Position numbers and translations under genes: made by a program. A DNA stretch of 64,000 nucleotides. Origin: a virus. Position 1 is the first letter of the stretch; every line of letters begins with the position of its first letter. Under the pieces are notes generated by a model. That model had not been told where the DNA came from. It made no database searches and saw only the letters and a list, made by a program, of their open reading frames with translations. Positions 3,830 through 64,000 of the stretch are shown here, piece by piece. The DNA lies in IMG/VR virus record IMGVR_UViG_3300026118_000005, positions 2,916 to 66,915 of that record; one strand, 5' to 3'.

Positions 3830-4092
3830 GAACGGTGCCAAGGACTGCTTTTACGGTTCCATCCTTGGCGCAATTGTGGCTCGCGCCAATCCGCCATGCT
3901 TACTCCCCGCTCTCATGGGCATCCCGTCGGGGTTGCATGGTCCCGCAAGGGTGTATGACAATACTCAGTCCGCTTCCTATGTACGGCCTAGTTTCTCCAG
4001 CGATCTCCCTCACAAGGGGAATCGCTGTGCCCAAGCCTCGAACCGCAAGCCTATCCCGGCAGTATGTCCGTTGACTCTCACAAGCCAAAACT

Positions 4093-4431
4093 ATGAACGC
4101 TGATAACATAAAGATGGTGAAAATAGAAGTGACTGACGCAGATATTGCGCAGGGTAAGAAATGCTCTGGAGAGTGGTGCGCAGTTGCGTTGGCGGTGAAG
4201 CGATGCCTCGGTATTCCGAGTACGACCGTTGGAGGTTGGGAACTTTGGACGAGGCAACGCTGGGTGAGAACGCCGGAATCCGCCAGGGAGTTCATCAAGC
4301 GTTTTGACTCTGGGCGTGAAGTTGAGCCGTTCTCGTTCGAGGTTCCGATGAGGGTTGAAAGTTGGTACCAAAACAAAAATTCAACAAATGACTTGCCATG
4401 CGAAGCGGTTCGCATAGAATGCAGGCGTTAA
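4093..4431 (+). CDS. Hypothetical phage protein
   Basis: 112 aa ORF with A-rich upstream (AAAACT-ATG); IEVTDADIAQG..C.VALAVKR motif recalled from small phage proteins. Confidence 0.6.
   Translation: MNADNIKMVKIEVTDADIAQGKKCSGEWCAVALAVKRCLGIPSTTVGGWELWTRQRWVRTPESAREFIKRFDSGREVEPFSFEVPMRVESWYQNKNSTNDLPCEAVRIECRR
4393..4420 (+). promoter_or_regulatory. Sigma70-type promoter with palindromic spacer driving the pentamer-array/RAMP cassette
   Basis: TTGCCA(4393-4398)-16 nt-TAGAAT(4415-4420); spacer TGCGAA-GCGG-TTCGCA is an inverted repeat; predicted start near 4427 is the first array unit. Confidence 0.6.
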
Positions 4432-4586
4432 CTCTTCGTTACGCGGCTTATTTTAACTTTGCTCAGCGTGGATTCACTCGTCGTTCCTTTATTTAACTTG
4501 GCTTTCATTTACGCGACTTGCCTAACTTTGCTTTGGCGCATCGTTACGAGTCTTCACTTGATTAGTCTTCCGTTAACTCAACTCAC
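4427..4586 (+). repeat. Phased pentamer array 1, consensus C(T/G)(T/C)NN x32
   Basis: 32 consecutive in-phase 5-mers (gttaa ctctt cgtta cgcgg cttat tttaa ctttg ctcag cgtgg ...); position 2 is T/G in 32/32, position 3 is Y in 29/32, position 1 is C in 23/32; positions 4-5 vary. Confidence 0.85.
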
Positions 4587-4592
4587 TCAACT

Positions 4593-5159
4593 ATGAAAAC
4601 CGCAATCGCAACCCTGAAATCCGCATCCCCCTACAGTCCATCGCGTCAGCACTTCACGCCCAAGCTGGAGCGTGAACTCAACGACGCTTACGAACAGCGC
4701 ACATGGCGTGAGAAAGGTCACTATGACCCCGATGGACATTTGCTCATTCCTCCGATGATGTTCAAGAACGCCATCGCTGCCGCCGCTCAGTACATGGGCA
4801 TGCAAGTTCCCGGCAAAGGCAAGAGCACTTACACCAAACATTTCGAGGCTGGCGTGATCATTCCTGACGCCATCACGCTCACTCAGACCCGCGAGAATGT
4901 GGAGTCTATCACGCTTTCCCAGAATGCGGACGGCAAGCGAGGATCGGGAACGCGAGTGATGCGCATCTTTCCGATCGTGAACGAGTGGAAGGGGCAACTC
5001 AAGATCCTTGTACTGGATGACATCCTTACCGAAGACGTGGTGCGCGAGCATCTGATTCGCACTGGCCAGTTTATCGGCATTGGCCGCTGGCGTCCCCGTC
5101 AAGGCGGTATGAATGGCCGCTTCGAAGTGGAGAAATTCACTTGGAAAGACGGGCTTTGA
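4593..5159 (+). CDS. Stand-alone RAMP/Cas7-like RNA-binding protein
   Basis: 188 aa with RAMP-like motifs: N-terminal strand AIATLKSASPY, LLIPPMMFKNAIAAAA (compare IPgsslKGalR) and C-terminal Gly-rich loop GQFIGIGRWRPRQGGMNGRFEV. Confidence 0.75.
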   Translation: MKTAIATLKSASPYSPSRQHFTPKLERELNDAYEQRTWREKGHYDPDGHLLIPPMMFKNAIAAAAQYMGMQVPGKGKSTYTKHFEAGVIIPDAITLTQTRENVESITLSQNADGKRGSGTRVMRIFPIVNEWKGQLKILVLDDILTEDVVREHLIRTGQFIGIGRWRPRQGGMNGRFEVEKFTWKDGL

Positions 5160-5167
5160 TTTTCTGT

Positions 5168-5313
5168 CTTGGCTTGACTTGTGGTGACTTGCATTTGCTT
5201 GACTTAACTTATCTAGTTTTGTCTTAACTTGTCATTCCTTGCAAATGTCTCGGTTAACCTTGTGTCTTCTTACCGCCATTTTACATAGCTTGACTACCCT
5301 TGACTTAACTCTC
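5168..5313 (+). repeat. Phased pentamer array 2 (15 + 13 units)
   Basis: cttgg cttga cttgt ggtga cttgc atttg cttga cttaa cttat ctagt tttgt cttaa cttgt cattc cttgc [aaatgt] ctcgg ttaac cttgt gtctt cttac cgcca tttta catag cttga ctacc cttga cttaa ctctc; fills the whole intergenic gap. Confidence 0.85.
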
Positions 5314-5315
5314 CC

Positions 5316-5795
5316 ATGAAAACCATTCCGTCTCTCTCCGTGGACGCTCAGGCGCTCGCACGCGTGCTCGGAGAATCGCCCGTCGGCGAAGTCGTAACTT
5401 ATGACGCTCTCTCTAAGGCTATCGGGCGCGATGTGCGCTCGGCCCGTGGACTGCTTTACACTGCCGTTAGAACTGTGATGCGCGATTCCAACGCCGTCTT
5501 TGCTGCCGTTCGCGGCGTTGGCTTGAAGCGTCTGGAATCCACCGAGATCGTGAGCGTTGCCACACAGACCGTTCGGCACATCCGCAAGGCATCTGGTCGC
5601 GCCATGCAAAAGCTGGCTTGCACGGACCTTTCCAAGCTGAACGAATCCCAGAAGGTGAGCGTGTTCACTCACAATTCCCTGCTCGGAGCGTTACGCGTCA
5701 TGAGTTGCCAGCCGTCTATCAAGAAGCTGACGGAGGCGGTGAACTCGGCCAATGCCGAATTGCCAATTGCGAAGACTCTTGCGCTCTTCCAGTAA
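5316..5795 (+). CDS. Accessory protein of the RAMP cassette, possible N-terminal winged-HTH
   Basis: 159 aa; GEVVTYDALSKAIGRDVRSARGLLYTAVR resembles a wHTH; lies between arrays 2 and 3. Confidence 0.65.
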   Translation: MKTIPSLSVDAQALARVLGESPVGEVVTYDALSKAIGRDVRSARGLLYTAVRTVMRDSNAVFAAVRGVGLKRLESTEIVSVATQTVRHIRKASGRAMQKLACTDLSKLNESQKVSVFTHNSLLGALRVMSCQPSIKKLTEAVNSANAELPIAKTLALFQ

Positions 5796-5860
5796 CTATT
5801 TATGCCTCGCCGCTTCGTGCATTATCTTGTATTGATTTCGCTTTGCTTAACTTAACTTTA
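5796..5860 (+). repeat. Phased pentamer array 3 (13 units)
   Basis: ctatt tatgc ctcgc cgctt cgtgc attat cttgt attga tttcg ctttg cttaa cttaa cttta; starts right after the stop codon and ends at the next ATG. Confidence 0.8.
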
Positions 5861-5985
5861 TGTCCTCGGAAGCGGCAAAGAAACTCGGAGCGAAAGGCGG
5901 CAAAAAACGCTGGGAGAAAGTATCCAAGGAAGAGCGTACCAAGCAGATGCGAGAACTTGCGCAAAGGAGATGGAAGAAAGGCTAA
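5860..5985 (+). CDS. Small basic KGG-like protein (41 aa)
   Basis: Manual translation MSSEAAKKLGAKGGKKRWEKVSKEERTKQMRELAQRRWKKG; below the ORF-track cutoff. Confidence 0.6.
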   Translation: MSSEAAKKLGAKGGKKRWEKVSKEERTKQMRELAQRRWKKG

Positions 5986-6014
5986 GCCAATCCCGGCATT
6001 AGAGTTTAAGCTAT
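5985..6014 (+). repeat. 30-bp direct repeat, copy 1
   Basis: AGCCAATCCCGGCATTAGAGTTTAAGCTAT, identical at 6863-6892. Confidence 0.9.
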
Positions 6015-6234
6015 GAAATTGAAAGTATTCGCAATCAAGGCAACTGGAACCTACGGCGGCGGAATGGCCGTTGTGGCAGCAAGTGAGCAAGGGCAAGCGG
6101 AGGCCATTGCCAGCAACATCTTCGATCATGTTTGGAACACTCGGTACCACGTTCCCGATTCCGTGGAGGAACTGCCAGACGTCTTTGCAGACGGACTGCC
6201 AAGAGTTCTTTCGCATCACGAACTTGGAGAATAA
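6013..6234 (+). CDS. Hypothetical protein
   Basis: 73 aa ORF in a tightly packed + strand run. Confidence 0.6.
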   Translation: MKLKVFAIKATGTYGGGMAVVAASEQGQAEAIASNIFDHVWNTRYHVPDSVEELPDVFADGLPRVLSHHELGE

Positions 6235-6237
6235 ATT

Positions 6238-6558
6238 ATGAATCTAACTGACGAGCAAATTAAAACGGCGTTCACTGAAGCGAAGCTGGCCGCGCAAGCA
6301 CTGGCAGAGACGCCAGATAAAGGAGCGTCCAATTTCGACACCGTGACGCTCGCGCACGGCATGAAGAACCGAAAGCTTGCGAGTCTCGCCGGGAAGTGCG
6401 GACTCTATGCGCACACAAGTCGCTGGTGCGGATGTTCTCATGTGTTCATCAACTTCAGCACTGGCGGCGCGGATCGCAGGACGAAGATGAACGAGGCGGC
6501 AATGAATTCTCTGACGGAATCGGGGATTGCGGCCAGCATGTACTACCAGAGAGACTGA
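6238..6558 (+). CDS. Hypothetical protein
   Basis: 106 aa ORF starting 3 nt after the previous stop. Confidence 0.65.
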   Translation: MNLTDEQIKTAFTEAKLAAQALAETPDKGASNFDTVTLAHGMKNRKLASLAGKCGLYAHTSRWCGCSHVFINFSTGGADRRTKMNEAAMNSLTESGIAASMYYQRD

Positions 6559-6589
6559 GAATATGACTCGTAAAAACTAGATAGGATGC

Positions 6590-6823
6590 ATGGAGATTAT
6601 GACAAAACGATACTGCGACATTTGTGGACAGCCTGCGATTGATTTTCAGGCAAGCGAGCGTGTACCATTTGGAGAAATAGATGAATCATTCCCTGCTTTA
6701 GGACCTCATATCGTCGTGAGAGCATCCTTCAGCTTCGAAGGGAGAAAGGACAAATTTGGAGGTCCTCCCGACCTTTGCCAAACGTGCGGCAATGACCTGA
6801 TTCGAAAATTACTTAAGGCGTAG
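6590..6823 (+). CDS. Small Zn-finger-like protein
   Basis: 77 aa with CDIC...CQTC. Confidence 0.55.
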   Translation: MEIMTKRYCDICGQPAIDFQASERVPFGEIDESFPALGPHIVVRASFSFEGRKDKFGGPPDLCQTCGNDLIRKLLKA

Positions 6824-6862
6824 ATTGGAAGGCTTTGATTGCGTCTGTCGAAGTGAACCGCG

Positions 6863-6892
6863 AGCCAATCCCGGCATTAGAGTTTAAGCTAT
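6863..6892 (+). repeat. 30-bp direct repeat, copy 2
   Basis: Identical to 5985-6014. Confidence 0.9.
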
Positions 6893-6903
6893 CGAATAAC
6901 AAT

Positions 6904-7686
6904 ATGATTGAACCAATCCACATTCTGAGCCTGGGCGCGGGCGTCCAGTCGAGCACCGTTGCTCTTATGGCAGCAGAAGGGGAAATCACCCCGATGCCAG
7001 CGTTTGCAGTTTTCGCAGACACTGGTGACGAACCGCAGGCCGTTTACGAATGGCTCTCCAAGTTGGAAACAATGCTGCCGTTTCGAGTAAAGATTGCTCG
7101 CAATGCCATTCCAATAAACGGCAAACTAAGTGACAATCTTTTTCAGTGGGACCATTCGCAGATTCCTGCCTTCAAGATCAATCCGAAAACAGGCGCTCCA
7201 GGTTTAGGGAAGCGGCAATGCACGAAACACTGGAAGATTGTTCCGGTTCACCGAAAAATAAGGGAGGCGACAGATACCAAAAACAAAAGGTTGGAACCTG
7301 GATTCGTTGAGTTATGGCAGGGCATCAGCGTTGATGAGATATTCAGGGCGAAGGAATCTCGCGAACCGTGGATAAAGCATAGGTTCCCACTTCTCGAAAA
7401 GCGCATGCGCCGTGGTGATTGCGTTGCGTGGCTAAAACGACGAGGGCTTGAGGCACCCCGCAGCGCCTGCATCTATTGCCCGCTCAAGAAGCAATCCGAA
7501 TGGAGAAAGAGCATGGCAATTCCAGAAGAGCGGGCGCTCATTCTAAAGGTCGATGCGATGTTAAATGAGAGAGGCGAGTTCTTGCACCCGTCCTGCAAAC
7601 CAATCGGCGCGATTGACTTAACCGAGGAGGGGTATGCCGAACTAGACCTATTCAACAATGAGTGTGAAGGCATGTGCGGCGTTTAA
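6904..7686 (+). CDS. PAPS-reductase-like (PP-loop/HUP fold) Cys-rich phage protein
   Basis: ILSLGAGVQSS PP-loop, FADTG, RQCT..WK, RSACIYCP, C-terminal ECEGMCGV. Confidence 0.75.
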   Translation: MIEPIHILSLGAGVQSSTVALMAAEGEITPMPAFAVFADTGDEPQAVYEWLSKLETMLPFRVKIARNAIPINGKLSDNLFQWDHSQIPAFKINPKTGAPGLGKRQCTKHWKIVPVHRKIREATDTKNKRLEPGFVELWQGISVDEIFRAKESREPWIKHRFPLLEKRMRRGDCVAWLKRRGLEAPRSACIYCPLKKQSEWRKSMAIPEERALILKVDAMLNERGEFLHPSCKPIGAIDLTEEGYAELDLFNNECEGMCGV

Positions 7687-9154: not shown

Positions 9155-9345
9155 GTCGCAGGTTCAGAATGGTTAAGCGGCCCCCATGGCATACGGCACC
9201 ATTCACATCTACCACTCACCTGGTCCTCTGGTTCCAAGTCGCTTTTGCAATAGTAACAGGTTTCCGGCATGGTAGTTCCTGGCGGGTACCTATAACTAGG
9301 CACTTCGTCATTGGATGATTCAACTGCGGCTTCGGTCGATTCCAT
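9151..9345 (-). CDS. Small Zn-ribbon protein
   Basis: CYYC...CEWC; promoter TTGACG-17-TAGAAT lies 5 nt before the ATG. Confidence 0.55.
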   Translation of the reverse strand: MESTEAAVESSNDEVPSYRYPPGTTMPETCYYCKSDLEPEDQVSGRCEWCRMPWGPLNHSEPAT

Positions 9346-9392
9346 CACCAATTCTATCCCCTGGCGTTTCTGCCGTCAAGAATCCGCTTGCA

Positions 9393-10773
<1,381 letters not shown>

Positions 10774-57466: not shown

Positions 57467-57968
57467 TCGCGTTGTGCAGCGCCACGGTTGACGAGTAGAG
57501 CGCCGTCCTGCTGGAATAGTCCATCGTTACCGTTCTCAGCGCCTCTGCCAAATGCTCTTTGCAGGCACAGCCAAACGACGGAACCTTTTTGCGCCACTCC
57601 ATGAACCATCTCTCGGCGGAAGCCATCTGCGTAGGCGTAGGTTCATCGAAGTAGTTCTGGGCGTACTCGTGAAGCTCCTTCCACAAGGCACGCCCGATCT
57701 TCACCAACTCGGGCAATGGCCCCTCGGCTTCGTCGTGGCACGGAATCTCGGGATGCTGGCGGCAAACCCCATCCCAGACGCGCTCTTGCCAGCCGTGCGC
57801 TAGATCGTGGGAAGCACCCTCTGCGTTGGCTGCTGAACGAGCCTGGAAGACTGCGCGGATGAGAGAGTTTGGATGCGTCTCGGCAAACGGGTGATTCAAC
57901 AATTCGTCGTGAAACTGCCAGCCTTTGGGGCCTGGAACGTAGATGAAATTATCAGGAACTAGGGGCAT
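57405..57968 (-). CDS. Erv1/Alr-like FAD sulfhydryl oxidase domain protein
   Basis: GRALWKELH, GCACKEH, SRTALY..VALHNAINRILGK match the Erv signature G..W..LH / CxxC..H / HN.VN..LGK. Confidence 0.7.
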   Translation of the reverse strand: MPLVPDNFIYVPGPKGWQFHDELLNHPFAETHPNSLIRAVFQARSAANAEGASHDLAHGWQERVWDGVCRQHPEIPCHDEAEGPLPELVKIGRALWKELHEYAQNYFDEPTPTQMASAERWFMEWRKKVPSFGCACKEHLAEALRTVTMDYSSRTALYSSTVALHNAINRILGKAQWVPPLEGAPKE

Positions 57969-60900
57969 CAGTGAAGGCGCATGGCTTGTTTGGCTTGTTT
58001 CGTGGCATCGGCGGCAACTTTAGAAAGAAGGTGCTCCGCCTCTTCGCTCGGCAAGGTCTGCAAGTCGCGCATGGAACGGCGCAGGGATTGTTTAATAAAC
58101 TGTCCGCGCCTTATTACGTAGTCCTTCCAAAGCGAATCACTGATGATCCCGTTTTTCGACTCTAGAGCACGGCGGCTAGGAGGATCTGGAGCCATTCCAC
58201 GCTTGGTCAAAACGCTGTAAAGCATAGCGTCTTTGCTGTCTGGATCAACGGCAACGTAAAGCGGTAGACCAGCGAACCAAGCGCGATCAGATGCTTTCGT
58301 GAGCAAATCTTGAGGTTCTTGGCCGATAGGATCGCCTAGACCATTCAAGGCTCGATCTCCAGAAAACGGGGCGACGGCAGGAAGCTGCGCCATCACCGCA
58401 GAGCGCAAACTGGATTGATCTTGGGGGCCCGAAATTGCTCTGCCGAGACTCTTGAGGAGTCCCGAGAAAGGCACCAGAGGTGCAGAGGAGTAAGTCACAT
58501 TCGACGCTAAGTTTTGCTCTGTCATAGGAGCAGCCGCCGCAGCGGAATTACGAAGGCCGAAAAACTGCGCCTGCTGTTTGAGGCTTTGCAATGCGGTCTG
58601 CATGTATGCGCCAGCCCACTCAGCGTCCTTTTCGCTATGCAACTTGCCATTTAACTTCATGTCGTTCAAAGTTCCGAGCAGAAGCGCTGGAATTTTCCAA
58701 CTTTCAAAACCTCCCCGCGCCCAAGGTAGCGCAGCGATAACTTTGCCATCCGATCCACGGTATTCGATAGCGCCAATGTGATGCCCTTGTTTTGCCCACG
58801 CGTCACGCTCACCTTTGCCTTGCGGCCCTGCACCTGTGATATCGAATCCAGCGCCATCCTTGTCCTTTGAAGCCAGCAACGCGCCTAGGATGGTCAACCC
58901 GATGGTTCCAGCAACGCCCTCGATCATGCGTTGGCGAACGCTGTAATCGGTGCCTAGGGATTCCGTGTAGAGCTTGCGAGGCTCGAGGCGCTTGGCGTCC
59001 ATGGAATGCGCCAGGATGCGCGCTAGGCCCACGGGAGTGAAGGCAAAAGAGCGGTTGAGCAGATTGGCCGGCACGGCTACGAACCCCGTCAACATCCGGC
59101 CCAACAATGGCCAGTCTTTGCGCGAGGCTTGAGCCGCACCTTTCACGGTCTCGGCCAGGAAGTTCGGGAGATCGAACCAGTGACCCTTCTCGCCCTTCCA
59201 GTTTCCAAGCTCGTAATCGGCTTCAAGAGTCGTGTGTTTTAGCAACTTCTCGCCTGCGCCGGGAACGTACTCTTCCAGCGTGTCGCGAATAAATTGGTTG
59301 CTAGCGTCGTGAGCGATCAACCGCGCTTCGTCAGGTTTGTATTCGCCTACCTTCTCTGCGTAAACCTTCTGGCCTATCATGTCGGCCTCGTGCATGAGGG
59401 TTGCAGCCTCCTTCACGCTCATGCCAGCCTTGGAAACAAGTTCCCGCATGGCCACTTCATGCGTCAAGAATCGCTGAATCACCGTGTTATGCGCTTGGTC
59501 CATCGCGGACAAGATGCGTCGCACCATGTCGGTCGAGGACCATGTTGCCGTCATCGCGGCCTTGGCCTTGGCGAGAGGCTTAGCGTTCGGATCACGCAAC
59601 GTCTCCATCGCATCGGAGAACGACTTGTGAAGGTTCCCAATGTTGGATAGTTCTCGAACCTGTTTGGAAGCAAAGGCGTCATTGCGTGCCGACACTTTGA
59701 ATTCATCGACAAACCGTTTGTAAGCCTCAAAGAAGTTCGAAACGGTGTGCTTCATCAGCCCAGCGGCTTGACCCATCGTGAGCTTTCCGGTCGCCACATC
59801 GGCCAAGAGTCCAGCGTTCGCCACGCCAAGCCGGGAGATCATGCCGAACACGGGAGCCGTGGCATTTTGCCCAAACGTCGAAGTGCTGGAAAGTGCGCTG
59901 TTCGTCCACGACTTCACCAAGATCTCACGCATGGACTTGGGAATCTGTGCGTGCTCAAGGATGCGCTCCATTTTGGAGATCGCCAGCAGCCTTTCGTGCG
60001 GAGAAGGCGACTGCATCTTTTCGTCCAGCGCAGCAAGTTCCCGCCACTTCTCAGGGGACAGCTTGCGGAATCCAGACGCTTCGGCCAACGCTTCGAGAAC
60101 GCCCGTCGGCTCTGCGCCCGCGACCTGTGCAGGGTCTAGGTAGGAACGAATCGCCTTCTCGACACTGGCGAGCGTGGCCTTGTTGAGATCCAGACCTTCG
60201 GCAGCTTTGCGGAACGCCTTCACGTTTGCTTCCGTCCAGTGCCTTTCCAGCCGGGAGCCGATCCAGTCCACGTAAGCCTTCGCCTGCGAGTCGGTGAGCC
60301 CCCATTCCTTGGCCGCATCTATAGCCACTTGGCGGCGCATCGCAGGGTCCTGCTGCTGGGATTTCGCGAGCCGGAATTGTGCGGCGATAATGCCCTTGTC
60401 GAGGCTTGACCGTTCGACTTGGCGGAAGATTCGATCCGTTTGGGTTGCGGAGAGGGTCTGGCTTTTGCGATAGAGGCGATCCAGCAGCGTCCGGGCATCT
60501 GCCGGGGGCACTTTCAACGCTTCGAACTGCGGAAGATACGTCTTCACGAATGTATCGCGATCCATGCCAGGATTGATGTCCTTCACCGCCTCATTTGCCA
60601 GCTTGCGAATCTCGTTCTCTTTCTTCTCCGTGTTCAGCCACTCGGTTTGCGACTTGTCGATGGAGTCGATAATGTCCTTCGTGACTGCCGTCGCTTTTGC
60701 GGTCTTGTATTCGTCGCTGTTGATTCGCTTCTCGCGGGCTTCATCCCGTGCAAGCTTGCGTGCTGCGTTCGCTTTGTGCGTCTCGTGCGCCTCATCGAAA
60801 ACTCGCGATGCCAGCTTGTCGGAGACGCCCAGCTTGCGCATCTTCTCGGTAAACGCGTCCAATGGCTCTGGCTTCTTCGCCTGGGCCTCGTACGCCTCTT

Positions 60901-63900
60901 GAATGGCGCTCTTGGTGCGTTGCTGCGCTCCCTTCTCCCGACGCGCCTTGAGCCGGTCTACGAGCCTTTGAGCTTCTTCGTCTCCGCGCGTGGCGTCCTT
61001 GATGTCCTTGACGTTGACGCGGGCCTTGTTGCCAGTCGCGTCCTCCAAAGCGTCCAACTTACGAAGGGAATCTCTCAACTCAGCCTGAACCTTCTTGATC
61101 TCCGTGCGGATCTCTTCGACGGACATATCCCCGCCTTCGGTCGCTGCATAGCGCTTCTTGCCTTTTGGCTCCTTTGGGAGCTTGGCCTGCAATTCCTCCA
61201 GGCGTGCCACTTGCCCCTTCAAATCCTTCGTTAATGCACTTTGCTGGGAGGCGATCTCCGGCTCAACGCCTTTCTTCCATCCTTGAGCGACGGTGTGTTC
61301 TTCCTGCTGTTTCGCCAACTCCTCGGCTGGCGCTTCAAGGATCGCGCTTGCGGCCCTTTGGCCCGATGGCGTCTCTGCCTCCTGGGCGATTCGCTCTTCG
61401 ACTTCCCGGCGCACGTCTCGGGAGTTCTGCGATGCTTCGAGATTGGCAGCCTTTTCCTTTCCCTTGGCGGTTTTCGCTGCGGCCTCGGCTTTAGAGGCCT
61501 GGATTTGACGGTAAGTGTCCTCGAATCCCTCCTGATTCATGACCCACTTGCGAGCCTGGAGGATTCGGCCAGCGGCCCCGAGAGATGCGAATGTGCCAAC
61601 GCGCACATGATTTGCCATGTCGTGAGTCAAACGAACTAGCGAGAAATCCCCGGTCTTGTGGAAGTTCCGAACGGCGTATTGCATCAGCGCCGATTGCAGC
61701 ATCACGCCCCCGGCTTCGTAAGTGGGGAATGCATCGCCTGCATCCAGTTGAGTACGCGCTAGCATGTTCACGAACTCGTGACCGTAGGATTGGTTGCCAA
61801 TCATTTTGTTGACAACCTTGCGAATTTCCTTGGTGTTTTCTGGGGTAACTGGCGGCAATCGACCATCTCCGGCCGTATCCGAACCCGTGACATCAGCAAG
61901 GAAATCGGTCACGTGGTTATAAAGTTTACTCGCGGACTGACGTGCCTTCGCCGTCTCCGAAGGACCGCCGAAAACCTGCTCAACTTCGCGCGGGTTGTCC
62001 TCGAAGAACTTCTCCGCGTTTGTCTGCCATTCATCATAGGTTGTTCCCCCGGTCCCCGAAATCCCAGGGCGGTGCTTCTCGCCTTCGTGTCCCGCCTCGG
62101 GATCGCGCGTGGTTCCCTTGAGGGGCGCACGGGATGTCTGGGCGTAACGGCGCAGCTCGGGATAATCATGCCCGCGCCGCCGCTCGATCATGTCGTCAAT
62201 CCGCTCGTCCAAAGCCTCGGGGGTCTCGAAGGGATTCTTGAGCAATTCCCGCATGTGATCCTTCACCCCATCGCGAATTTCTGGACGTAGGCCCCTCTGC
62301 CATTCCCCAGGCTCGGTCAAAGATCTCCAGTCCAAGGGTCCGGCTGGCTTGGAGGGAAAGGGGGATGTGCGGACGTCCCGATCCCATGCCAACATATCTG
62401 CAAAGATACTGGCGTAAAGATCCTTCCGCTCTTGGGACACTTCCCGAAGAGAAGAGAAATCCGCTTCTCCTGGGAGGACCATAGCACTGCCTACCGCCAA
62501 AGCCTGCAACCGAGAACGCCACTTCCGGAGACGAGAAAGCTCATGCACCTGCTCGGGAGGAAGTTCCCCCGCCTGCTCTGCTTGCTCCAGTTGCGCCAGT
62601 CGCATGGACTTGGCTTCATCTTCGTCATGGAGGCGTTGGATCTCGCGGGCTTCGCGATCCTTCGCGATCCGCATTCCCTGCAACTGGCCGCTCGTTTCCT
62701 CCTCGATCTTGCGAATGGAATCCTCGATCTTGCCGAACGCTTCCTTGAGTGAGTTGCCGTAGTCGCCTTTCGCTGCCTTGCGTGCAAATTCCTTTAGCTG
62801 GTTCGTCTCTTCGCCAGACAACTTCCATTCGGACATCGTGCCGTTGGCGTGGAGGTTCGCAGCTTCGTAGAGAAGGGCGTTGAAAACCTTGCGAGCTTCA
62901 ACATCGGATGGCTTGCTAGTTGAGCGGCGCAACGCCAGTGTGATCTTTCGAAGAATCTCCCCGCGATCTTTAGCCGAAAGCTCCTCGCCATGGAGAGCAT
63001 GGAGAGCGGCTTTGATTGCTGCTTTCGCGGCTGGATCATTTTGGCGGTACGAGCTGGAAATGGCTGTGTAAGCCGCTGTCTTAGCCGCTTCGTCAATGGC
63101 GTTGGATGCTGCCAATTGCCCACGCATCCTTGCAATGAATGCGTCCTGATCTACAGGAGACATCTCTTCAAATGCCTCGTGGAGATTTGGCGACACGGAA
63201 AGGGTTAGCTTGCCGTCGGTGTCTCGGTCGATGGTGTAGAGTCGGTCACCGTCGGAGAGTTCTTTGACTTCCGCTCCTGCACCTTTTCCCATGCCTTCCA
63301 CAAGGCGTTTGAAGCTCCTGCGGGCGTTAACTTCATCCGGTGCCAGAATTTCTGCACCGCTTCGCTTTCTTGATTCGGCTTGTCGCTCATTGAATTCCCT
63401 TTCGTTGGTTCGGATTGCTTCGCGGACACGTCCCCAGAACCGCATGAGTTCCGTGTCTGTCGGGTCAGTTTTGCCCGTGATTTTCTGCCAAAGTTTTTTC
63501 AGCCACGCTACGAACTTGCCGCCCAAGGAATCGGGAGGAAGTTTCGATCCTTCCTTGATTTGTGCCGCAACCCATTCCTCTTCCGCAAGTGCTCGTTGTG
63601 CATCGTTCGTTCGCCAGTCCTTGAGGCTGTACAAATCGGCGATGGCGTCGAGTTCGAACTCCGGTATTTGCTTCACCAATCCCTCGTATTCCTTCCAAAG
63701 CTCAGGATGCGCTGCCTTGATTAGGTCTTTGCCCTTGTGGAATAACTCATGGGACATCCACTGATAAGCCGCTTCCTTAGCCGATTGACCGGGGAGGCGT
63801 TTCATGTTCGCGGCAATCGTGTGAATGATGCCGTGCTCCGTGTAAACGGCTGCTCGACTGTCACCCATCGAATCCGCAAGACGGTCGAAATAATCATGCA

Positions 63901-64000
63901 CACGTTGTTCCCCCGAGTGCATACGCCCGTAATTCCGCATCGCTTCCGCATCCTTGTGGACAACCACGGTTCCGGGCGTGAGGCCATATTCACGCTCAAT
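57968..64000 (-). CDS. Giant internal virion/ejection (polyvalent-type) protein, 5' end beyond window
   Basis: Frame stays open to base 64000 (at least 2010 codons); helical, A/K/E-rich; HELFH HExxH motif near the window end. Confidence 0.8.
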   Translation of the reverse strand: MEREYGLTPGTVVVHKDAEAMRNYGRMHSGEQRVHDYFDRLADSMGDSRAAVYTEHGIIHTIAANMKRLPGQSAKEAAYQWMSHELFHKGKDLIKAAHPELWKEYEGLVKQIPEFELDAIADLYSLKDWRTNDAQRALAEEEWVAAQIKEGSKLPPDSLGGKFVAWLKKLWQKITGKTDPTDTELMRFWGRVREAIRTNEREFNERQAESRKRSGAEILAPDEVNARRSFKRLVEGMGKGAGAEVKELSDGDRLYTIDRDTDGKLTLSVSPNLHEAFEEMSPVDQDAFIARMRGQLAASNAIDEAAKTAAYTAISSSYRQNDPAAKAAIKAALHALHGEELSAKDRGEILRKITLALRRSTSKPSDVEARKVFNALLYEAANLHANGTMSEWKLSGEETNQLKEFARKAAKGDYGNSLKEAFGKIEDSIRKIEEETSGQLQGMRIAKDREAREIQRLHDEDEAKSMRLAQLEQAEQAGELPPEQVHELSRLRKWRSRLQALAVGSAMVLPGEADFSSLREVSQERKDLYASIFADMLAWDRDVRTSPFPSKPAGPLDWRSLTEPGEWQRGLRPEIRDGVKDHMRELLKNPFETPEALDERIDDMIERRRGHDYPELRRYAQTSRAPLKGTTRDPEAGHEGEKHRPGISGTGGTTYDEWQTNAEKFFEDNPREVEQVFGGPSETAKARQSASKLYNHVTDFLADVTGSDTAGDGRLPPVTPENTKEIRKVVNKMIGNQSYGHEFVNMLARTQLDAGDAFPTYEAGGVMLQSALMQYAVRNFHKTGDFSLVRLTHDMANHVRVGTFASLGAAGRILQARKWVMNQEGFEDTYRQIQASKAEAAAKTAKGKEKAANLEASQNSRDVRREVEERIAQEAETPSGQRAASAILEAPAEELAKQQEEHTVAQGWKKGVEPEIASQQSALTKDLKGQVARLEELQAKLPKEPKGKKRYAATEGGDMSVEEIRTEIKKVQAELRDSLRKLDALEDATGNKARVNVKDIKDATRGDEEAQRLVDRLKARREKGAQQRTKSAIQEAYEAQAKKPEPLDAFTEKMRKLGVSDKLASRVFDEAHETHKANAARKLARDEAREKRINSDEYKTAKATAVTKDIIDSIDKSQTEWLNTEKKENEIRKLANEAVKDINPGMDRDTFVKTYLPQFEALKVPPADARTLLDRLYRKSQTLSATQTDRIFRQVERSSLDKGIIAAQFRLAKSQQQDPAMRRQVAIDAAKEWGLTDSQAKAYVDWIGSRLERHWTEANVKAFRKAAEGLDLNKATLASVEKAIRSYLDPAQVAGAEPTGVLEALAEASGFRKLSPEKWRELAALDEKMQSPSPHERLLAISKMERILEHAQIPKSMREILVKSWTNSALSSTSTFGQNATAPVFGMISRLGVANAGLLADVATGKLTMGQAAGLMKHTVSNFFEAYKRFVDEFKVSARNDAFASKQVRELSNIGNLHKSFSDAMETLRDPNAKPLAKAKAAMTATWSSTDMVRRILSAMDQAHNTVIQRFLTHEVAMRELVSKAGMSVKEAATLMHEADMIGQKVYAEKVGEYKPDEARLIAHDASNQFIRDTLEEYVPGAGEKLLKHTTLEADYELGNWKGEKGHWFDLPNFLAETVKGAAQASRKDWPLLGRMLTGFVAVPANLLNRSFAFTPVGLARILAHSMDAKRLEPRKLYTESLGTDYSVRQRMIEGVAGTIGLTILGALLASKDKDGAGFDITGAGPQGKGERDAWAKQGHHIGAIEYRGSDGKVIAALPWARGGFESWKIPALLLGTLNDMKLNGKLHSEKDAEWAGAYMQTALQSLKQQAQFFGLRNSAAAAAPMTEQNLASNVTYSSAPLVPFSGLLKSLGRAISGPQDQSSLRSAVMAQLPAVAPFSGDRALNGLGDPIGQEPQDLLTKASDRAWFAGLPLYVAVDPDSKDAMLYSVLTKRGMAPDPPSRRALESKNGIISDSLWKDYVIRRGQFIKQSLRRSMRDLQTLPSEEAEHLLSKVAADATKQAKQAMRLH

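Follow-up and report, generated by a model that had tools for sequence, protein, structure and literature searches.

The DNA analysed here (the window, 64,000 nt corresponding to positions 2,916 to 66,915 of IMG/VR virus record IMGVR_UViG_3300026118_000005) carries, at 4393-5985 on the + strand, a locus that very probably constitutes a VIPR (Viral Interference Programmable Repeat) system, acting in the same manner as the published systems of Escherichia phage SUSP1 and of a Pseudomonas fulva prophage. As described in 10.64898/2026.04.26.720920, VIPR comprises (i) a phage-borne minimal RAMP protein (Vipr), (ii) an accessory vap gene and (iii) vrRNAs built of 9-16 pentamers, each combining a GGY triplet with a dinucleotide (NN); the NN pairs read double-stranded DNA, with one base skipped per unit, and competing mobile elements are thereby repressed. 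In the window the fixed triplet, hereafter referred to as the handle, is C-K-Y (K, T or G; Y, T or C). The locus consists, in this order, of a promoter-like site, a 160-nt non-coding tract, an open reading frame (ORF) of 188 amino acids (ORF188, vipr), a 156-nt gap, a second ORF of 159 amino acids (ORF159), a 64-nt gap and an ORF of 41 amino acids. Since VIPR was published in April 2026 and non-GGY handles in October 2026, both as bioRxiv preprints, the locus represents a new member and not a new kind of system. This member has a rare all-pyrimidine CUU/CKY handle and arrays without tails; as a representative of its family it is ordinary. All of the elements that an original prediction, made from the sequence alone, had listed in this region were detected at or near the positions given for them, and the resemblance to VIPR that it had pointed out was correct (bioRxiv 10.64898/2026.04.26.720920 and 10.64898/2026.04.26.720927).

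The 188-aa product of vipr (4593-5159, + strand) is a Vipr homologue, i.e. a minimal, single-RRM RAMP of the Cas7-like kind. Pfam contains no family for this protein, and no sequence-level match to Cas7 families was obtained with Pfam or with the Cas models of PADLOC. The protein falls into PHROG 4652 (phrog_4652, E 3.8e-14), a family without assigned function, and its relatives are numerous: 1,940 of 1,997 candidates of similar length were recovered at E<=1e-3, and an exhaustive search yielded 1,208 cluster representatives at the same threshold. A listing of cluster members contained no UniProt accession by which the ORF188 clade could be tied to the seed proteins of the discovery paper. When the single sequence was compared with those of the PDB, one relevant chain was found, 36pp_D (annotated 'SUSP1 Vipr protein'; E 1.3e-3), the similarity covering the region from the thumb to the G-loop. 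The score for this chain rose to E 3.2e-9 with a 33-sequence family profile, and a profile-sequence hhalign comparison with the SUSP1 Vipr taken from the phage record gave 97.0% and E 8.5e-11 over 130 columns.

Structural modelling pointed in the same direction. The AlphaFold2 model of ORF188 (predicted local distance difference test score, pLDDT, 91.2; predicted template modelling score, pTM, 0.84) was compared by Foldseek with a PDB library ending on 2026-04-08, which hence contains no Vipr entry. The top matches were exclusively Cas7-type RAMPs (type VII Cas7, Csm3 and Cmr4), with 145 matches at E<=1e-3 and template modelling (TM) scores of 0.5-0.6; the best of them was 8z4j_J (E 2.2e-8, TM 0.55), and another example is 6xn3_F (TM 0.61). 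The assignment of ORF188 to the RAMPs, proposed from its motifs, was thus borne out. The protein has a thumb hairpin at about residues 104-129 and a G-loop at 162-176, and the glycine-rich loop that had been taken as a RAMP signature aligns with the G-loop of SUSP1 Vipr. In this alignment residues D177, W178, R179 and R138 of SUSP1 stand opposite R165, W166, R167 and F126 of the window protein. The vipr ORF is intact and retains all 26 invariant columns of the family alignment.

All three non-coding tracts of the locus are occupied by pentamer arrays. Periodicity was measured as column-wise mutual information and compared with 1000 mononucleotide shuffles of each tract. Period 5 reached z 18.4 in 4425-4592, z 9.7 in 5160-5315 and z 4.6 in 5796-5859, and in no case did any of the 1000 shuffles score as high. 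Among periods 2-11, the only other significant signal in the array tracts was the harmonic 10, and ORF188 and ORF159 displayed only the coding period of 3. In a sliding scan of the whole 64 kb the mutual information at period 5 attained 0.50 or more solely in the three array tracts, with 11 isolated scan windows at 0.40-0.48. Tandem Repeats Finder did not detect the arrays because they are too degenerate, which is why column-entropy statistics were used instead.

Array 1, a putative vrRNA array (4430-4589, + strand), contains 31 NN+CKY units in three registers and ends 3 nt before the ATG of vipr. Its sub-arrays lie at 4430-4519 (18 units), 4524-4533 (2 units) and 4535-4589 (11 units), separated by two register slips at about 4520-4534. 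Array 2 (5166-5311, + strand) fills the gap between vipr and ORF159 with a first sub-array of 15 units (5166-5240) and a second of 13 units (5247-5311), the register shifting by +1 near 5241-5246. Array 3 (5804-5858, + strand) is composed of 11 clean units and ends with AACTT AACTT, 1 nt before the next ATG. The predicted 15+13 units of array 2 were therefore right, but array 1 had been credited with 32 units and array 3 with 13; likewise, the 5-nt phase, said to run through the arrays, is kept within the sub-arrays but is broken across the whole arrays by three small slips.

The described combination of a near-constant triplet C(T/G)(T/C) with a variable dinucleotide was confirmed. The exact pattern NN-C-[T/G]-[T/C] is found in 49 of the 70 units, and base composition predicts 6.7; in the other four registers CKY occurs in 0, 5, 1 and 2 of 64 units. 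By array, the exact CKY triplet is present in 23 of 31 units (array 1), 10 of 15 and 8 of 13 (the two parts of array 2) and 8 of 11 (array 3, where all 11 units read xKY). Over the 70 units the triplets are CTT (31), CTC (8), CGT, CGC, TTT and ATT (5 each) and others (11). The unit positions carry 0.18 and 0.08 bits of information for NN and 0.89, 1.06 and 0.89 bits for the triplet; position 4 is T or G in 67 and position 5 is T or C in 64 of the 70 units, and 15 of the 16 possible dinucleotides are represented. Tandem 5-nt repeats flanking vipr on its own strand, with a constant triplet alternating with a hypervariable NN, are the repeat organization of VIPR. The triplet is not the canonical GGY; however, the VIPR literature allows 'a related consensus' and non-canonical triplets are in print, so that this does not exclude membership. 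Conserved non-periodic segments were found neither between nor after the window sub-arrays. No Rfam family matched 4000-6300 at E<=1, so that hammerhead-type spacers are absent, and the RNA of array 1 has no self-structure beyond that of shuffles (z -0.76).

ORF159 (5316-5795, + strand) is a conserved accessory gene. Homologues adjoin the vipr-like gene on the same strand in 69 of 80 related loci (see below), and in the protein atlas the family is viral-only. Sequence comparison by hhalign revealed a distant similarity to the gene beside vipr in Pseudomonas phage LESphi2 (70%, E 4.1e-5) and a weaker one to SUSP1 vap1 (31%, E 5.3e-4); ORF159 is here called vap-like. The original prediction had described the ORF as wHTH-like. 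In the AlphaFold2 model (pLDDT 94.3) residues 9-72 form an H-b-H-H-b-b arrangement resembling a winged helix, followed by long helices of a C-terminal domain, but Foldseek against the PDB gave no significant match (best E 0.033). The sub-significant list consists of winged-helix DNA binders (MarR-like, OmpR/PhoB-type at 3.2-3.9 A over about 75 residues, GntR and BirA), and sequence hints to an MGMT-type winged helix also stayed below threshold.

The locus is preceded by a candidate sigma-70-like promoter (4393-4420, + strand; TTGCCA, 16 nt, TAGAAT), which agrees with the consensus at 10 of 12 positions and lies 9 nt upstream of array 1. It is the sole promoter-like site within 3900-6700, but a single site is no more than shuffles give (1.9 +/- 1.3), so that what speaks for it is its position alone. 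In the region around the locus no terminator-like site was detected on the + strand. A single promoter-like site directly before array 1 and the lack of such a terminator are compatible with one transcript carrying both arrays and genes.

The locus sits on a single 66,915-bp phage-like contig from a rhizosphere metagenome. Phage genes on this contig include those for a DnaB-like helicase, an exonuclease VIII-like protein and the large subunit of the terminase; an RNA ligase gene and sugar-modifying genes are present as well. As had been predicted, cas genes and CRISPR arrays are absent: PADLOC gave no Cas family match among the 49 ORFs of the window, and no CRISPR-like repeat was found in the window. 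Nor were other defence families found among these ORFs by PADLOC, save for an SspD/PAPS-reductase-like protein at 6835-7686. A viral context without a CRISPR array or other cas genes is likewise typical of VIPR. No counterpart of the locus was found by blastn among 50,697 phage records.

To place the locus among its relatives, IMG/VR was scanned with a family pattern; 216 encoding stretches were present among 254 pattern matches, and the best 80 were kept as related loci. A locus was given a triplet label when one triplet recurred six times or more at a spacing of 5 nt, no farther than 300 nt from the gene, and was otherwise left unlabelled (19 of 81 IMG/VR loci including the window locus, and 10 of 47 further, new loci). 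The proposal that flanks of homologues would share the 5-nt periodicity held: arrays abut the gene in nearly all of the 80 relatives, and a recurring triplet could be labelled in 61 of them, as well as in the window. The labels were GGC (25 loci), CGC (17), GAC (9), CAC (5), GTC (2), GTT (1) and CTT (1, the window); the labels AAA and CAA, given to two more loci, were dropped as A-rich noise and not arrays. The labelled triplet lies on the gene strand, usually agrees between the two flanks of a gene and does not occur in the coding region. Applied to positive controls, the same script recovered the GGT arrays of SUSP1 on the vipr strand, in the published arrangement of one upstream and three downstream, as well as GGC arrays in LESphi2. 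Since the canonical GGC is found on the gene strand in the same NN + S-N-Y register, the C-K-Y units of the window appear to be sense-strand handles of the same kind. Those of the relatives that are located in metagenome-assembled genomes (36 loci) represent Alpha- and Gammaproteobacteria, Cyanobacteria, Planctomycetota, Acidobacteriota, Chloroflexota, Nitrospirota, Bacteroidota and Saccharibacteria.

The C-K-Y handle is a small recurrent type and not a one-off. The closest relative, L083, resides on a metagenome contig and encodes a protein 73% identical to that of the window; its gene is flanked on either side by CKY units (period-5 z 5.1 and 7.2), which read AACTC TTCTT GTCGT TCCTC ... ATCTC ATCTC. 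CTC and CGC units were found in a Lichenihabitans metagenome-assembled genome (L187), ten consecutive NNCTC units in one of Microcoleus (L199), and CTC units in a further locus (L075). At the DNA level the window and L083 agree at 400 of 573 positions of the gene, but only at 89 of 171 and 66 of 156 positions of the arrays. NN and array content thus turn over much faster than the gene.

The handle itself varies widely in this clade, and we examined whether the protein varies with it. A tree was constructed for 84 non-identical proteins with labelled triplets (an earlier tree comprised 51); the AAA and CAA loci, identical proteins and the N-masked locus L210 were left out. The tree requires at least 25 triplet changes, with at least 6 at base 1, at least 18 at base 2 and at least 4 at base 3. 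Base 1 follows residues 110-111: a G-first triplet coincides with Val-Pro at these positions in 44 of the 84 proteins and a C-first triplet with its absence in 34, with 6 exceptions, and the split is paralleled by Lys124 versus Arg124. For base 2 the relevant residue is Arg165 of the G-loop (GIGR), which is kept in 49 of 50 proteins with G-second triplets and in 8 of 26 with A-second ones. These residue rules, derived on the IMG/VR loci, were then tried on 35 independent new loci. Of these, 29 obeyed the base-1 rule (one of the misses being an N-masked locus), and Arg165 was kept in 15 of 16 G-second loci and in 2 of 11 GAC loci.

Switches of this type are also seen between sister proteins, namely (i) L015 (CGC, residues FLN) and L007 (GAC, FVP), with SH-aLRT support of 84, (ii) L054 (CGC, FLP) and L014 (GGC, HVP), with support of 93, and (iii) L026 (CGC, FVN) and L068 (GGC, FVP), with support of 90. 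The window protein has Q110-N111, R124 and R165, a combination that fits a C-first handle with U or G in second place. Residues 111, 124 and 165 fall within the thumb and the G-loop, through which SUSP1 Vipr contacts GGY. The variation of the handle with residues 110-111, 124 and 165 suggests that the protein itself sets handle specificity; this co-variation is suggestive only. Handle identity is not related to Vipr residues in the accessible text of 10.64898/2026.04.26.720920, 10.64898/2026.04.26.720927, 10.64898/2026.10.21.760802 or 10.64898/2026.10.15.759431, nor to the protein tree in that of 10.64898/2026.10.21.760802.

Along this clade, whose proteins are about 50% identical, the handles form a series: GGC, CGC, GAC, CAC, GTC, GTT, CTC and CTT. 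It is possible, although we would put it at somewhat less than an even chance, that the 'constant' triplet of the clade is in fact a fast-evolving, lineage-specific handle set by a few positions (110-111 and 124 for base 1, Arg165 for base 2), with the CUU of the window at one extreme; nature would then contain many mutually orthogonal Vipr-handle pairs, and handle specificity could be re-coded by few substitutions. The elements new here are the at least 25 triplet switches among 84 relatives, the tracking of residues at the thumb base and in the G-loop, and the recurrence of C-K-Y in four other loci. The original prediction had considered CKY a distinct variant. Non-GGY triplets had already been reported, since 10.64898/2026.10.21.760802 describes 21 clusters (6,318 sequences) with non-canonical fixed triplets such as GAC, CAC, WGT and TGH; CTT, CTY, CKY and CGC, however, are not named anywhere in the text of that report, the full list of which is its Fig. 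S10A.

VIPR is a months-old class of RNA-guided DNA binders, the published mechanism of which rests on a protein reading the syn-guanines of GGY. A working CUU-handle system, if true, would mean that the scaffold is able to grip quite different triplets without an obligatory G. The natural series from GGC to CTT provides matched protein-handle pairs for working out the recognition code, and, if the pairs are orthogonal, several guide sets could be used in one cell without cross-loading. According to 10.64898/2026.10.15.759431, satellites and rival phages encode 'solo' vrRNAs that hijack the Vipr of another phage, including those of SUSP1 satellites; orthogonal handles, if real, were possibly selected as an escape from such hijacking. 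The switching of the handle together with thumb and G-loop residues, suggestive as it is, is the part worth testing.

Several results weigh against the interpretation given above. The link between residues and handle was not significant in a phylogeny-aware independent-pairs test, which was underpowered, since no more than 1 and 4 pairs fell on branches with good support (p 1 and 0.25). Gln16, which the training set had suggested as the reader of base 3, was rejected out of sample, as it is retained in both of the new loci with T in third place. As to SUSP1 Vipr, H17 and D177 read G1, R138 and W178 read G2, and the pocket for Y3 is made up of E71, M72, C173, T175 and R179 (10.64898/2026.04.26.720927); the G-reading residues D177 and R138 are not conserved in the window protein, so that the chemistry of recognition must differ and is not readable from the published structure. 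ORF159 cannot be equated with any of the named genes vap1-6, BLASTP having found no similarity to vap1 and hhalign only the 31% mentioned above. Within the arrays, 21 of the 70 units depart from CKY, mostly as ATT or TTT, and some erosion is possible.

No natural target was found in the searches made. On the contig itself, with a skip of 0-3, the best target scores were at or below the shuffled maxima, which agrees with the published absence of self-targeting. Four exact gapped seeds of 8 xNN units had 51, 4, 31 and 3 matches in IMG/VR, and their best extensions (10/20, 5/20, 6/14 and 2/6) were at chance level. Matches in 133 related VIPR loci (538 kb) were at shuffle level as well, giving no sign that the arrays are directed at the vipr genes of relatives.

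Taken together with the register slips, the deviating units and the failure to find a target would also suit a decaying relic, whose guides, once of the GGY type, are eroding by drift towards pyrimidines and whose function has been lost. We regard such decay as improbable. The vipr ORF is intact with all its invariant columns, the periodicity is very strong, and the near-fixation of T/G at position 4 (67/70) and T/C at position 5 (64/70) reflects selection for a defined triplet, not drift. Moreover, the same C-K-Y handle occurs in four other loci (L083, L187, L199 and L075) from different sources, and imperfect units are present in the canonical SUSP1 arrays too.

Still less probable is that the arrays act as DNA, i.e. 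as iteron-like sites or as bent DNA with a period of half a helical turn that serves ORF159 or regulation of the operon, and not as guide RNAs. Such a role would agree with the resemblance of ORF159 to DNA-binding winged-helix proteins and with the placement of the arrays exactly in the 5' regions of three ORFs. However, arrays of the same type flank the homologue of a protein whose binding to pentamer RNA was demonstrated by cryo-EM and RNA sequencing (10.64898/2026.04.26.720920 and 10.64898/2026.04.26.720927), in every labelled locus the triplet keeps to one strand with respect to vipr, the free NN is unlike an iteron bound by a protein, and some relatives have arrays of 800-1000 nt. Equally hard to sustain is a reading of the guides from the opposite strand as (A/G)(A/C)G+NN units, for although the minus strand of the window does read AAG+NN and the discovery paper (10.64898/2026.04.26.720920) lists NNNNG among alternative vrRNAs, gene-strand GGC is the commonest triplet in the 61 labelled relatives (25 loci) with most of the others being S-N-Y in the same register, the GGT units of SUSP1 lie on the vipr strand, the best-conserved window base is T at positions 4 and 5 and not the base that would be the minus-strand G, and the sole promoter-like site faces the + strand.

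If the locus is indeed a VIPR system with a CKY handle, its operation can be outlined by analogy with the published systems. By homology with those of SUSP1 and P. fulva, the arrays and genes would be transcribed together from the + strand. Vipr protomers would polymerise on the array RNA, one per pentamer, as reported for SUSP1 (one protomer per repeat; 10.64898/2026.04.26.720927), with the thumb and G-loop gripping the fixed triplet and leaving the NN pair exposed. Double-stranded DNA would then be read by the concatenated NN pairs, each unit skipping one base (xNN), and binding would silence transcription of a competing phage, satellite or prophage. The idea, put forward from the sequence, that each protomer holds a triplet and displays NN as part of a discontinuous guide matches the published VIPR mechanism.

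Several further features of the arrays were recorded. All three end with one or two AACTY units directly before an ATG (AACTC AACTC, GACTT AACTC and AACTT AACTT, at 4575-4592, 5297-5315 and 5849-5859, respectively); the array of the Microcoleus locus (L199:1003-1200) likewise ends with AACTC AACTT, and the 7-mer TTAACTY recurs within arrays 1 and 2. The terminal AACTY units may be a terminal or boundary signal in place of the missing 3' tail. Each array runs up to a start codon, that of vipr, ORF159 or the 41-aa ORF, without a recognisable Shine-Dalgarno sequence (4578-4601, 5302-5324 and 5850-5865; also L083:140-165), and both vipr and ORF159 begin with ATGAAAAC (MKT), as do their homologues in L083. 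If Vipr formed filaments on its own 5' leaders, the loading of guides could be coupled to operon translation. In relatives, continuous period-5 tracts of 600-1000 nt (120-200 units) were observed at L026:1706-2505, L035:191-990, L037:3551-4560, L057:3056-3845 and L079:3841-4440, which far exceeds the 9-16 (up to 30) repeats per vrRNA given in the preprints.

Contigs from three DNA sequencing runs were compared with the locus, one run being probably its source; those covering it were too fragmentary to use. A contig of another soil run (X2) spans 5739-5900, from the last part of ORF159 through array 3 into the 41-aa ORF, with 2 differences in 162 nt. Contigs of the same run over vipr differ at 13 of 340 and 23 of 245 positions, mostly spaced at multiples of 3. 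This could mean that array 3 is unusually conserved, or else that the contigs derive from different relatives. A further DNA run contained a 55-nt contig with GACTT units.

The basic 41-aa ORF (5860-5985, + strand), which the original prediction had included in the system, lies probably outside the conserved module. It has no homologue at E<=1e-3 in the 80 related loci, which for such a short query is weak evidence, and no Pfam family above the cut-off; three neighbouring small ORFs also lack homologues in these loci. Inside the 41-aa ORF, at 5872-5920, there is an imperfect direct repeat of 24 nt (2 copies, 80% matches), which yields a repeated K/R-rich ...RW.K motif. At 6835-7686 (+ strand), 850 nt downstream of the VIPR module, lies the gene of the 283-aa PAPS-reductase-like protein mentioned above (phrog_424, E 3.4e-35; PADLOC SspD, E 2e-13), which may be a DNA-modification or an auxiliary metabolic gene. 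Elsewhere in the window, 9-nt tandem repeats, CCCGTAGCG (3.3 copies), CCCGTTGCC (2.3 copies) and GCCCCTGTC (4.2 copies), are located at 9565-9754 within the overlapping ORFs 9315-10037 and 9393-9938 and would give rise to a repeated tripeptide. A 1,999-aa ORF at 57968-63967 (- strand), the largest gene on the contig, belongs to no PHROG or PADLOC family.

Among known systems, the closest is type II VIPR of Escherichia phage SUSP1 and the P. fulva prophage. Shared features are (i) a phage-borne, homologous minimal RAMP of about 190 aa, (ii) a small accessory gene immediately downstream, (iii) sense-strand pentamer arrays upstream and downstream, with a constant triplet and a free NN, and (iv) the absence of cas genes and of a CRISPR array. 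The differences concern the handle, which is C-K-Y (mostly CUU) with no obligatory G in the window and GGY in SUSP1; the G-contacting residues, D177 and R138 in SUSP1 versus R165 and F126; the vrRNA, which in SUSP1 has a leader and a tail/pseudoknot of about 40 nt, whereas the window arrays are tail-less with only 1-6-nt slips between them; and the accessory protein, ORF159 having no BLASTP similarity to SUSP1 vap1 and a distant likeness to the LESphi2 neighbour gene. Type II is characterised by a conserved, pseudoknotted 3' tail on every vrRNA and by vap1 as accessory gene, a combination not seen in the window locus.

In its non-GGY fixed trinucleotide, its 5-nt period and the adjoining protein of Vipr fold, the locus resembles the VIPR-like clusters of 10.64898/2026.10.21.760802, and its relatives include GAC and CAC loci. 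The discovery paper (10.64898/2026.04.26.720920) distinguishes seven types, some with staggered or ribozyme-spaced arrays, and alternative repeats NNNGG, YNNNG and NNNNG. With the staggered, tail-less types (Methods and Fig. S18 legend of that paper) the window locus shares long continuous arrays, guide directly after guide, and partly degenerate constant positions; each of the published alternative repeats listed there, however, keeps at least one G. Finally, the Cas7 proteins of class 1 CRISPR systems (Csm3, Cmr4 and type VII Cas7), which provided the best structural matches, share with the modelled ORF188 the RRM fold with thumb and G-loop, and polymerise along guide RNA at a constant spacing, as the window protein would. 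In CRISPR this spacing is 6 nt and the spacers are contiguous, whereas the window locus, which has no CRISPR array or other cas genes, is organised by a 5-nt period and a dinucleotide code.

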